From the NCBI GenBank assembly GCA_020724065.1, contig DYHQ01000001.1:26782-90781 (forward strand): DNA of 64,000 nucleotides. Reading direction: 5' to 3'. The position numbers and the translations under genes were made by a program. Shown piece after piece: positions 51,225-54,200 of this stretch; positions within the stretch are counted from its first letter, which is position 1, and each line of letters starts with the position of its first letter. The stretch is from Candidatus Puniceispirillum sp. (GTDB lineage Bacteria > Electryoneota > RPQS01 > DYHQ01). The notes under the pieces were generated by a model that was not told the DNA's origin, ran no database searches, and saw only the letters and a program-made list of their open reading frames with translations.

Positions 51225-54200
51225 TTGTTAGTCATACTTCTGCTTTGCCCCTGCGTCTGTCTTGCTGAGGGGCTAAAGCCGGCGCCGATGGCGATGGCTG
51301 CCCAGGCGGTGAGCGAGCGTTGGCCAGTGGGCGATACGGTGGATGTCTGCGCCATCCGTATTGAATTTGTGCCCGACCAGATGACGGGAACATTGGGAGA
51401 CGGCACGATGGGCTCGGCGTTCGAGACTGGTTTGCTGATTGATCCTCTTCCGCATGACCGTGCCTACTTCGAGGATCACCTTCTTTTTTTGCGGCACTAC
51501 TACCAGACTGTCTCGGAGAACAAGGTTCCATTCGGACGGTTGGATGTTTATCCCGTCGAGGAGGATAGTGTCTATCGCGCGGCCTATCCGATGTGGCACT
51601 ATAACTACAACATGGATGATGAGCTTTTGAATCGGCGACTGACGGAACTCTTTCTTGAGGCGCTGCAGCTTGCCGATAGCGCGGGGGTCAATTTCTCAGA
51701 CAATGACGCGGTCGTCGTTTTTCATGCGGGAGTCGGCAAGGATTTCAATATCGGCTATGACAGCACGCCCTTTGATTTGCCCTCTGCCTACATTGCTCCG
51801 GCTGATTTTCGCGCCTACTTGCCTGAGTATCCCAACGGATTTCTGACCAACGACGGAAAGCTCATAGACCGAGGACTCCTGCTTCCCGAAGGCGAGAGCC
51901 AAGAAGGATTCGAGCTCAGTGTGAACGGCGTCATGGTCAAGCTTTTTGGCAATTGGTTGGGACTGCCGGACCTTTTTGACACGCAAACGGGGCTCTCCGG
52001 CATCGGGCGGTGGGGAATGATGGATCAGGGCAGTGGCAATGTGTTCGCCCTCGTGCCAGCGATGCCGGAAGCGTGGTCTCGTGCCTACATGGGGTGGGTG
52101 ATCCCGGACACCATCTGGGCGTCTGCTCAAATCGAGACACTGCAGATTAAGCGGTTCGGAATAAGCACCGACGCGCCGGAAATGCTTCTGCTGCCCATCA
52201 CAGAAACTGAATGCTATCTGCTCGAGAGTCGAGCAGCCGACCCGGATTGCTTGGGTTATGTGGAGTGTCTCGACCGACAGGGACGACGCATGCGACTGAC
52301 TCTTGAAGGAGAAGCGACCCTTTTGGATGGCGCTTTTGGAGTTGTGACGGAGGTGCGCAATTACGATTTTGGCATTCCAGGCGCAGGGATTTTGATCTGG
52401 CACATTAACGAGACAAAGATTCAAGAAGGTCTTGCTGACAATACGGTCAATGCTGATCCTGAGCACCGAGGAGTGGATTTGGTGGAGGCGGACGGGGCGC
52501 AGGATATCGGCGAAGAGTATGGTTTTGGATTCGCGGGAGGCGGCACCGAATTGGGTGCACCCGAGGACGCTTGGTGGGACGATAACGACTATCACAAGCA
52601 AGCCAACGCAAATGCCTTTCAAGTCGTCTTCAATAACACGACCTTTCCCGCTGCTCGGACGGATGATTGGGCTTACAGTTGGCACGAACTCTCTCATTTT
52701 TCGCCGATTTCATCCACGATGAGTTTCAGAGTGAAGAATCGCACTCGTGTCGCCGGTTTTCCGATTGAAATTCCCTCTATGCTTGAGGACTCGCTCATTG
52801 TGTTTCCCGGAGATTTCAACGGAGACGGTCACTCGGAGCTGCTCGTTGCTGGACGCGATACCACGATTCTCATCATTGATTCAACAGCAACTCCTCGGCA
52901 GGTCGTTCTGCCCGTGTGGAACAACATGCGCGTCGTTGACCTTGACGGGGACGGTCAGGACGAATTACTTCTTGGAGGAAGTCGGCTCTATATCGTAAGA
53001 AATCTGATGGGACAGCCCGACATTGATTCGATGTATCGTGAACCAAGGAACGGTATTTACAATCACCTTTGTGCGGGTGTAGCTCCGGACAGTTCGCCTC
53101 GCATATTGGCTGTTTGGGAGCAAGATGAGCCCGGGAATGAATTTGCTTTTGGATTGGTTCTCTTTGACGGTGAGGCAAATCTCTTAGACGACACGCTGGA
53201 CTTTCCCAGTGATGCGATTTGGCAGGTAACCCGTGTTGTTGCCTTGGAGCCGCCGCCGAGTCATTCGTGGGCCATCGGGTATGAAGCCCCGGGGCGCAAT
53301 GAACTTCTGGTCATGGTCGGCCTGACGGATGAGATTGAAATCAAATGGAAGCAGGAAGGAAGCAACGGCTTGCGCCCATTGGCGTGTGTCGCCACGGAGG
53401 CAGAGACGCTGTTATGGTGCGAATCAGGTTGGCGAAACCGATGGACAGGTGAAATAGTCCGAGAGGCGAAGTGTTCTTTCAGCTATCAGATTCTTGACTG
53501 GGATGGGGATGGGACGCCCGAGACTATCAAAGATGGGCAAGCCTGCCACCTGGCGTTTGGTACACCGGTGGAAGAATTTCCATTGCGCGCGCCTGTTCAA
53601 TCCGTCGTTGCGGCTGATTTTGACGGCGACCGTTTGCCGGACCTGTTGGGAGACGACGGACAGTGGCACATTTTCCGGCACAGTCTGCGAGAACCTGCGG
53701 GTTTTCCCATGGCGCGTCTTGGAGAGTATCGCTTCATTTTTCATTGGGACAGTGAGGATTACCCCGAGGCAGCCGTGCTGACTTCCCCCTCTTATTTCCC
53801 TGATGGAACGAAGTGGTTGGACTTGCGGCGATTGGCTGTCGGAGGCGCGCCGGGGGAGCGAGAGATTTTTTGCGCTTATTCGGATCCAAGCCAATTCGAT
53901 CCGAATCCCACTTATTTCTATGTCGTCGAGCACGGGATCGGTTCTCAGGCTTATTCGCGCTCAGATTGGGTCTATGCGTGGCCGAACCCCACGAAGGATA
54001 TCAGCAATATCCGTTTGACTCTGCCCTTTCATGCTCAAGCGAACATTCGATTCTATGACATTGCGGGGCATTTGATTGATGAGTTGTCCGCTACCGTGAG
54101 TCCGGGTTATTCCGATGTGGCTTGGGATGTGTCCAGAGTCACTTCCGGTGTCTATATTGCGATGGTCGAAATCGTCGGCGATGGAAAGACCGAGCGCGCT

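Follow-up and report, generated by a model that had tools for sequence, protein, structure and literature searches.

An inactivated M6-like protein with a type A T9SS sorting domain is encoded directly after porV in candidate FCB phyla

To our knowledge, detailed dissection of T9SS has been confined almost entirely to Bacteroidota. PorZ, a surface protein of the PorU-PorV-PorQ-PorZ attachment complex of Porphyromonas gingivalis, works with PorU and with the PorV/PorQ barrels (PMC8545088). Motif rules have been set out for metzincins, among which the thuringilysins have Asp as the third ligand (PMC12237041). The two subjects meet in the NCBIfam model NF052323 (NF052323.1), 'T9SS-dependent M6-like inactivated metalloprotease' (T9SSA_dep_M6i), the name of which treats the family as a T9SS substrate. 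The protein analyzed here, M6i, is encoded in a 64,000-nucleotide stretch of DNA, referred to in its full length as the window. An initial annotation had described M6i as an M6 (InhA-like) homologue with a degenerate zinc site, a likely pseudo-protease exported by T9SS that may act as a binding or adhesin module or as a decoy rather than by proteolysis. The idea of an inactivated M6 protein is already catalogued in NF052323, and a full-text literature search found no paper describing the M6i family; what the present analysis adds is the gene context (Table 1).

Table 1 Features of the M6i gene and its neighbourhood in the window (slash, putative signal peptide cleavage point).
Feature	Position (nt)	Residues	Strand	Basis
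porU (C25-type T9SS sortase)	46161..50027		+	NF033707 646 bits (cutoff 420)
porV-like outer-membrane barrel	50129..51175		+	NF033709 278 bits (cutoff 90); 41-50 nt upstream of M6i
M6i gene (inactivated M6-like protein)	51225..54227	1000 aa from TTG start	+	ORF list, NF052323 match
Probable Sec signal peptide, MLVILLLCPCVCLA/EG	51225..51266		+	Inferred; read from sequence, weak
M6/thuringilysin-like catalytic-domain fold	51339..52124	~39-300	+	AF2 model, Foldseek, TIGR03296 (aa 88-306)
Degenerate zinc-binding motif KLFGNWLGLPD, replacing HExxHxxGxxD	51939..51971	239-249	+	InhA2 alignment, column statistics
Kept Met-turn segment MMDQGSGN	52017..52040		+	Aligned to 'LMSGGS' of InhA2
Beta-rich second domain of the M6 module	52125..52739	~301-505	+	AF2 secondary structure; invariant columns
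HELSH, chance HExxH, non-catalytic	52683..52697	487	+	Private to M6i and its exact copy
FG-GAP-type beta-propeller	52752..53939	~510-905	+	Pfam PF13517 and PF01839; AF2 pLDDT 90.9
Type A T9SS C-terminal sorting domain (CTD)	53979..54224	919-1000	+	PF18962, TIGR04183
dn1: HEYGH zincin-like domain, PD40/TolB propeller, Omp85-type barrel	54224..57328		+	Pfam PD40, Omp85
dn2: DUF5683-like, signal peptide, PGTGQLY motif	57450..58277		+	PF18935 28.9 bits
dn3: second DUF5683-like, PGWGQL motif	58303..58947		+	Sequence; matches no family model

The start of the M6i gene can be placed either at the TTG of Table 1 or at an in-frame CTG at 51216, 9 nt after GGAGG in the upstream sequence. After either start, a hydrophobic stretch, LVILLLCPCVCLA/EG, can be read from the sequence; the putative signal peptide lacks a basic n-region and is therefore weak. 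In the databases, an exact copy of the protein, P0001, begins at M22 and is without a signal peptide; homologues with complete N-termini (e.g. P0005, P0006 and P0010) carry clear signal peptides at the same place. The catalytic domain that follows has no long pro-segment, and the second domain holds the conserved motifs ILIWH and GVDLxEADGAQD, the match to NF052323 reaching aa 505. The C-terminal half contains both the FG-GAP-like repeats and the T9SS CTD that had been proposed. The repeats match PF13517 (E = 4.7e-10) and PF01839 (E = 2.4e-6) and are modelled as a propeller of about seven blades by strand count, with generic propellers as its Foldseek matches. The CTD, a beta-sandwich in the AF2 model, matches PF18962 (31.9 bits, cutoff 27) and TIGR04183 (23.5 bits, cutoff 23) over aa 919-984; the latter score scarcely exceeds its cutoff.

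Homology of the N-terminal half to M6/InhA proteases was borne out by both sequence profiles and the predicted fold. The best NCBIfam match, by more than 100 orders of magnitude, was NF052323 (E = 7.2e-128, 428.1 bits); the M6 domain model TIGR03296 matched with E = 3.1e-14 and 53.6 bits, under its 110.8-bit cutoff, and Pfam PF05547 alone gave a weak match (E = 0.012). When PDB sequences were searched, single-sequence phmmer with M6i returned nothing relevant, and the full-length family profile matched only propellers and the CTDs of PorU and PorZ. Reaching InhA2 required a family profile confined to the N-terminal part; for this profile, built from 35 N-terminal domains, InhA2 (4yu5/4yu6) was the sole match among all PDB sequences (E = 0.0053). 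The AF2 model of aa 22-522 (pLDDT 91.3, pTM 0.92) gave 4yu5_B and 4yu6 as the top PDB matches in Foldseek (E = 2e-13, probability 1.0), followed by other metzincins.

Nucleotides 51939-51971, translated in the frame of the ORF 51225..54227 (+), read KLFGNWLGLPD, as had been reported. In the alignment to 'HAFGHDLGLPD' of InhA2, residues K239, L240, N243, G246 and D249 of M6i occupy the columns of H, (E), H, G and D, respectively, the catalytic Glu column being Ala in the deposited PDB chain. The claimed loss of the two zinc-binding His residues and of the catalytic Glu is correct in the exact aligned columns (K239 and N243 for His, L240 for Glu), and the Gly turn (G246) and the third-ligand Asp (D249) are kept. 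The flanking M6 features are retained as well: FDTQTGLSGIGRWGMMDQGSGN follows immediately after KLFGNWLGLPD, and M266 aligns to the Met-turn Met of 'SLMSGGS' in InhA2 and is kept in 256/257 homologous proteins (119/119 and 137/138). In the AF2 model, the motif forms the C-terminal end of a helix, with the Gly as the first residue past it.

The comparison with orthologues that the initial annotation had proposed showed that the loss of the site is family-wide: neither HExxH nor a Glu at the site was found among the homologous proteins (0/119 and 0/138) or the genomic loci (0/83). The KLxxN..D substitutions recur in 61/119 aligned relatives; the third-ligand Asp is likewise kept in 61/119, its place being taken elsewhere by A, N, S or I. 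Some M6i subclades retain two His as HQxxH, which suggests that the loss may have begun with a change of E to Q. No active (HExxH) relative with the M6i architecture was found, the best 150 of 4332 representatives all being inactivated. The residues at these positions argue strongly that M6i cannot act as a canonical zinc endopeptidase, and the curators of NF052323, who also call the family inactivated, concur with the pseudo-protease reading.

M6i is maintained by strong purifying selection. Compared with the 85%-identical orthologue, dN/dS was 0.11 overall (dS 0.76), 0.06 in the catalytic domain, 0.03 in aa 226-275, which include the dead site, and 0.04 in the CTD. The best-conserved 25-aa windows fall in aa 226-275 and 376-450, and the residues counted as invariant in the family are E222, Q226, G246, M266-S270, W291, H393, E421, D423 and D427. 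Identity to distant members is 46-62% in the catalytic domain, 17-22% in the propeller and 41-47% in the CTD.

With 428 bits against a cutoff of 600 bits, M6i is a sub-threshold member of NF052323, and the NCBI pipeline would accordingly not assign it the family name. Its relatives score from 398 to 650 bits, P0073 (618) and P0112 (650) being the only ones to exceed 600; M6i aligns end to end with both. Most relatives of the KSB1, Calditrichota and LCP-89 types score 398-539 bits. The 600-bit cutoff misses most of the family, which a cutoff of about 350-400 bits would take in. M6i shares with NF052323 the M6-like N-terminal half, the FG-GAP propeller, the type A CTD and the equally lost active site. 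Its nearest named relatives, at about 40% identity, come from KSB1 and Calditrichota, and 573 clusters at 50% identity match it with E ≤ 1e-30; there are hundreds of full-length relatives. Public copies are either unnamed or carry the names 'T9SS type A sorting domain-containing protein' or 'M6 family metalloprotease-like protein'.

M6i lies in a conserved module, porV - M6i - dn1 - DUF5683-like, which is preceded here by porU. In a set of 80 species-level genomes of candidate FCB phyla, M6i directly follows porV in 72/72 genomes; dn1 comes next after M6i in 56/56 genomes, and dn2 and dn3 are adjacent in 53/54 and 47/54, respectively. This gene order also holds for members with as little as 30-40% identity and for the far subclades with HQxxH and with a third His. 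The GTG start of dn1 overlaps the stop codon of M6i by 4 nt (GTGA), and the HExxH of dn1 is conserved in 52/53 aligned orthologues. The porV-like barrel scored 207 bits with the PorV equivalog (cutoff 250) and 99 bits with PorQ. Assignment of the M6i-adjacent barrel to PorQ was rejected, the PorV equivalog scores being 203-251 bits compared to about 90-99 for PorQ. The porU ORF opens at 45975; read from M63, at 46161, the product has a signal peptide and is 1288 aa long, as is the L084 orthologue. The CTD of PorU is matched better by the C-terminal end of the M6i model (5e-9) than by the generic CTD model (6.5e-4) and aligns to the CTD of M6i with E = 2e-6. The window also holds a second gene of the PorV/PorQ family and another CTD protein, the cargo at 25205..27214; core components such as SprA/Sov and PorKLMN were not found among the scanned window proteins.

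The reading that we favour, with a probability of roughly 0.6, is that M6i, a divergent member of NF052323, is a dead M6-fold protein that serves as a non-catalytic binder coupled to the PorU/PorV attachment step. Under this scheme, M6i would be exported by Sec and then by T9SS, and its unusually conserved CTD would engage PorV. At the cell surface, the protein would bind rather than cleave, and the binding surfaces would be the propeller together with the former substrate cleft, which we single out as the most conserved stretch of M6i. Its function would thereby be coupled to cargo attachment by PorU/PorV, either as an accessory or as a dedicated partner of the complex. Given the invariant place right after porV, a role tied to the attachment machinery of T9SS is more likely than that of a plain adhesin or decoy. 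Synteny shows coupling, not mechanism, and a dedicated co-expressed cargo would look alike.

The main competitor, to which we assign a clearly lower but still appreciable probability, is that M6i is ordinary T9SS cargo, a dead-protease adhesin or decoy that has no machinery role and stands beside porV only for co-expression. The NCBIfam name ('T9SS-dependent') implies a substrate, the CTD is of the standard type A, and the propeller diverges quickly (17-22% identity), in line with an exposed binding domain. However, the PorV adjacency in 72/72 genomes extends to members at 27-40% identity across several candidate phyla, and we know of no cargo genes that are normally fixed beside a machinery gene across several phyla. 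Moreover, the catalytic remnant and the CTD evolve slowly (dN/dS 0.03-0.06), at a rate more usual for machine components that have fixed partners. A bolder version of the machinery role, which we regard as doubtful and rate below the cargo explanation, holds that the T9SS attachment complex of KSB1, Calditrichota, LCP-89, Zixibacteria, Marinimicrobia and relatives contains M6i as an obligatory subunit rather than as cargo. In these phyla, it would be docked on PorV via an uncleaved CTD and would stand in for PorZ of Porphyromonas by bringing the anchor glycolipid or the cargo to PorU, with dn1 and the two DUF5683-like proteins as further, hitherto undescribed parts of the module. PorU and PorZ likewise keep their CTD, which in cargo is cleaved with attachment of a glycolipid; for M6i, the indirect hints of a retained CTD that binds a PorV/PorQ barrel are the slow evolution of the CTD and the adjacency to porV.

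Two other explanations, which bear on the dead site itself, carry far less weight. It is very improbable that M6i is still a protease whose catalytic centre has moved (e.g. to HELSH at aa 487) or been reassembled from different residues, even though one HExxH string is present at nt 52683-52697, Asp249 and the Met-turn are kept, some subclades have HQxxH with two His, and the conserved residues E222, Q226, D249, D267 and H393 could form an unconventional metal or catalytic site. HELSH, which the initial annotation had named as a possible true location of the catalytic motif, was rejected as such because it is private to the M6i sequence and its exact copy: the 85%-identical homologue P0002 reads YELSN at this position, and no other homologue has both His. 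The AF2 model places HELSH among the beta-strands of the second domain. At the active-site helix itself, no conserved candidate for a general base was found among about 257 relatives, and in none of the 119 closest relatives do more than one of the three ligand positions hold a possible ligand. The opposite possibility, that the M6i gene once coded for an active M6 protease and is now a pseudogene in decay, or else an assembly artefact, would fit the unusual start (TTG or CTG) and the signal peptide without an n-region, and we give it practically no credence. The frame of 1000 codons is intact, and this explanation is effectively refuted by the dN/dS of 0.11 relative to the 85%-identical orthologue at a dS of 0.76, the recurrence of KLxxN..D in 61/119 aligned relatives, and the cluster numbers, with hundreds of full-length relatives.

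By itself, a dead M6i is a correct but already catalogued pseudo-protease and adds little; the value lies in the neighbourhood. Across this broad set of uncultured FCB lineages, the genes after porV always encode a dead M6i, an apparently live zincin fused to a TolB-like propeller and an Omp85-type barrel, and two DUF5683-like proteins. Should this module belong to the machinery that attaches cargo, it would reveal the workings of the T9SS end-stage outside Bacteroidota. It would then also be a clear case in which a secretion machine has taken over a protease scaffold as one of its non-catalytic parts.

Among described proteins, InhA2 of Bacillus anthracis (MEROPS M6; 4YU5/4YU6) has the fold of its catalytic module in common with M6i (Foldseek E = 2e-13); both further have an active-site helix with GLPD after it, a Met-turn Met and a HAGVG motif. 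The third-ligand Asp of thuringilysins is kept in the clade of M6i, whereas HExxH is missing and, with it, the general base and the His ligands. In contrast to InhA2, M6i has no long N-terminal pro-segment, the weak alignment beginning at residue 116 of InhA2, and the C-terminal domains of InhA are replaced by the beta-propeller and the T9SS CTD. The hosts differ too, being Gram-negative bacteria of the FCB group for M6i and Firmicutes for immune inhibitor A.

PorZ of P. gingivalis (PDB 5M11) is a surface protein of the T9SS attachment complex in which one or more propellers precede a CTD-like beta-sandwich. M6i is encoded with porU and porV and may resemble PorZ by analogy, in its likely mode of action only; it has one propeller rather than two, and an extra M6-like module. 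Specific homology to PorZ was rejected: NF052228 gave 21.1 bits against a cutoff of 260 bits, over the CTD only (aa 907-1000). Likewise, the 50 best fold matches to the C-terminal half of M6i do not include 5m11, and the family profile matches 5m11 over the CTD only. The snake-venom PII metalloproteinase homologues, inactive metzincins with altered zinc motifs, offer a more distant parallel (PMC5086652). Like M6i, they keep the scaffold with a substituted HExxH and are presumed to act by binding. They differ from M6i in belonging to an unrelated family (M12), in coming from eukaryotic venom and in not being known to have a link to a secretion system.

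In the protein under study (M6i), the M6-fold module lacks the ligands and base that form the catalytic triad. The protein matches the NCBIfam model NF052323.1, 'T9SS-dependent M6-like inactivated metalloprotease', over residues 22-505 (E = 7.2e-128, 428 bits) as well as TIGR03296, the generic M6 domain model (E = 3.1e-14), and thus the M6 homology is real; the Pfam model PF05547 alone gave a weak match (E = 0.012, residues 234-270). Family M6 is included in MEROPS subclan MA(M) (PMC3890501), and in thuringilysins (InhA) the third zinc ligand is Asp (PMC12237041). A profile of 35 N-terminal domains of the M6i family (A3), run against all PDB sequences, had a sole match, Bacillus anthracis InhA2 (4yu5/4yu6, E = 0.0053), with the family segment GtaallfgsqlGlPaL aligned on GVFAHAFGHDLGLPDE. 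The motif KLFGNWLGLPD proved to be the old active site: K239 aligns with the first His of InhA2, L240 with the catalytic position (Ala in the deposited chain, presumably an inactivating mutation made for the zymogen crystal) and N243 with the second His. The flanking M6 features are kept, with G246 on the InhA2 Gly, D249 on the Asp and M266 on the Met of SLMSGGS, i.e. the Met-turn.

The AlphaFold2 model of residues 22-522 is confident (pLDDT 91.3, pTM 0.92), and its top three Foldseek matches in the PDB are InhA2 chains (E = 2e-13 to 1e-12, probability 1.0), followed by further zinc peptidases, namely the O-glycopeptidase OgpA and then the metzincins fragilysin, ADAMTS4, ADAM8 and snake-venom enzymes. 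Because a helix spans model residues 212-224 and the motif begins at model residue 218, K, L and N are predicted to lie on the end of this helix, with Gly as the first residue past it. The sequence HELSH (residue 487), which had been named as an alternative catalytic motif, was found only in M6i and its exact database copy; its counterpart is YELSN in an 85%-identical homologue and YELSE, LELTD etc. in others, so that this candidate fails. It falls in a beta-strand region of the model.

Relatives share the loss of the site. In the alignment of the 119 closest cluster representatives, K, L or I occupies the first-His column, L or M the Glu column, and N, H, F or Q the second-His column; neither the Gly nor the Met of the Met-turn varies, and Asp is present in 61. 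HExxH was found at the site in none of the 83 genomic loci, 80 of which come from different species-level genomes. An exhaustive HMMER search for the family over 1.84 billion representatives yielded 573 clusters at E ≤ 1e-30, 1458 at E ≤ 1e-10 and 4332 at E ≤ 1e-3. In 138 further representatives, from the best 150 of these 4332, the Glu column holds M, L, Q, N, S, Y, I or H, never E, and the Met-turn is present in 137. The clade of M6i has KLxxN..D, one small subclade (P0225, P0232, P0242, P0243, P0245, P0253) has HQxxH with Ser at the third-ligand position, and another (P0163, P0175, P0215; loci L085 and L086) has xQxGFxxGxPH, with His at that position. Thus, the general base is always missing in the sampled family, and the metal ligands vary by clade.

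M6i is a functional gene under strong constraint and not a relic. Compared with the 85%-identical orthologue in the related locus L084, dN/dS is 0.11 overall (dS = 0.76), 0.06 in the catalytic-domain remnant, 0.03 for residues 226-275 (the dead motif and the Met-turn), 0.14 in the propeller and 0.04 in the CTD. Family-wide, residues 226-275 and 376-450 are the best-conserved 25-residue windows, and distant members are 46-62% identical in the catalytic-domain remnant and 41-47% in the CTD, against just 17-22% in the propeller. The region around the former active site is therefore the best-preserved part of the protein, suggesting that the cleft has kept a role in binding.

The T9SS CTD and the FG-GAP repeats reported in the initial annotation were both recovered with Pfam (PF18962, 31.9 bits, residues 919-983; PF13517, E = 4.7e-10; PF01839, E = 2.4e-6). 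The predicted model of the C-terminal half (residues 501-1000) is confident (pLDDT 90.9) and comprises 28 strands in fours, i.e. about seven blades, and then a beta-sandwich; by fold it matches the generic propellers BBS1/2/7/9, DDB1 and ITFG2 and also the PorU CTD (6za2, E = 4e-5). The N-terminus, MLVILLLCPCVCLA followed by EG, is a putative signal peptide with probable cleavage before EG, and clear signal peptides are present at the equivalent position in homologues whose N-termini are complete; the public copy P0001 begins at M22 and would be without one. Upstream lie a stop codon (51189-51191), GGAGG (51202-51206) and an in-frame CTG (51216), a candidate start alongside the TTG at 51225, with a spacing from GGAGG of 9 nt for the CTG and 18 nt for the TTG. 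Coding likeness to homologue signal peptides extends 5' of the TTG (RLHLLLVILLL vs SLHLLVLALFF in P0005).

Features of the window, with the frequency of each arrangement among loci with enough flank (from the best 80 of 559)
Feature	Coordinates	Strand	Description	Related loci
Minus-strand cluster	15964..27214	-	includes three proteins without family match
Second PorV/PorQ-family barrel	17838..18905	-	more divergent; NF033709 184, PorV 78, PorQ 71 bits
TonB-dependent-receptor-like protein	21991..25143	-	in cluster
Type A CTD protein	25205..27214	-	669 aa; in cluster
Gene trio	42310..45828	+	GWxTD-domain protein, ABC-transporter ATPase, response-regulator/HD-GYP-type phosphodiesterase; upstream of porU
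porU	45975..50027	+	NF033707 646 bits (cutoff 420); directly upstream of porV-like gene	13/55
PorV-family barrel	50129..51175	+	NF033709 278 bits; directly upstream of M6i	72/72
M6i	51225..54227	+	1000 aa from TTG
KLFGNWLGLPD	51939-51971	+	residues 239-249 of M6i, then FDTQTGLSGIGRWGMMDQGSGN
dn1	54224..57328	+	~1034 aa; HEYGH, PD40/TolB-type propeller repeats, Omp85-superfamily barrel; downstream of M6i	56/56
dn2	57450..58277	+	small, secreted, DUF5683-like; follows dn1	53/54
dn3	58303..58947	+	small, secreted, DUF5683-like; follows dn1	47/54
RmlD-like gene	58949..59839	+	dTDP-4-dehydrorhamnose reductase/epimerase; directly behind module

The gene module around M6i is linked to porV and invariant. 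In a scan that covered GTDB with one genome per species, 559 encoded relatives were found. Long contigs from relatives that are 30-40% identical show the same gene order. Two far-edge relatives, from the HQxxH and third-His subclades, likewise lie directly behind PorV. The barrel before M6i scores 207 bits with the PorV equivalog (cutoff 250) and 99 bits with PorQ, and the M6i-adjacent barrels reach 203-251 bits, which is close to or at the PorV cutoff, and are distant from PorQ. The PorU frame opens at TTG 45975 (1350 aa), and starting instead at M63 (46161) yields a proper signal peptide, MRYGWIVALLGLPLILFASA, and a protein of 1288 aa, equal in length to the L084 orthologue. For its CTD, the better match is the C-terminal end of the M6i family model (E = 5e-9), ahead of the generic type A CTD model (E = 6.5e-4). 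The next gene, dn1, opens with a GTG that shares bases with the M6i stop codon (GTGA); translation of an apparently live zincin is thus coupled to that of the dead one. The HExxH of dn1 (HE[FY]xH) is kept in 52 of 53 aligned orthologues, and no curated family names the protein. Given how regularly dn2 and dn3 follow dn1, they are part of the same module; they have in common the motif [LV]PG[TW]GQL, and one weakly matches DUF5683 whereas the other matches no model.

Many related loci have the RmlD-like gene in the same place (e.g. L001, L003, L005, L006, L015, L017, L026, L084, L086), and it may tie the module to surface-polysaccharide synthesis. The gene trio likewise precedes porU in L001, L005, L006, L008, L009, L012 and L084; thus, synteny in this clade reaches past the core module. 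The window also holds the second barrel, within the minus-strand cluster. KSB1, Calditrichota, LCP-89, Zixibacteria and Marinimicrobia are the named carriers of M6i relatives. Several MAGs with the porU-porV-M6i-dn1 synteny (L004, L006, L007, L008, L010 and others) are titled 'uncultured Alphaproteobacteria', 'Cytophagia' or 'Deferribacteres', titles that disagree with the named carriers and that we regard as unreliable.

The degenerate zinc site described in the initial annotation is confirmed, and its reading as a pseudo-protease exported by the T9SS is supported. This reading is not new, since the curated family NF052323 has exactly the inferred property, and it was thus known already at the database level; a full-text literature search found no paper on this family. 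M6i (428 bits) and most relatives (398-539 bits) fall below the 600-bit cutoff, which P0073 (618) and P0112 (650) exceed, and M6i is a new sub-threshold member. As far as we found, the strict porV-M6i-dn1-DUF5683 module is undescribed in the searched literature. The finding as stated adds little new; the conserved T9SS-linked module gives it moderate interest.

M6i would be exported by Sec and then by the T9SS and would act through binding, its function probably coupled to the PorU/PorV attachment step. The main rival to this reading is that it is a dedicated, co-expressed cargo or adhesin. In the attachment step of Porphyromonas gingivalis, PorZ, a propeller-plus-CTD protein with an uncleaved CTD, passes anionic LPS to PorU inside the PorU-PorV-PorQ-PorZ complex (PMC8545088). 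PorZ (5m11) was absent from the top 50 fold matches of the M6i C-terminal half, and 5m11 matches the M6i family profile over the CTD only. M6i is like PorZ in general design and gene neighbourhood but is no homologue of it, such that a PorZ-like subunit role appears possible, not probable.
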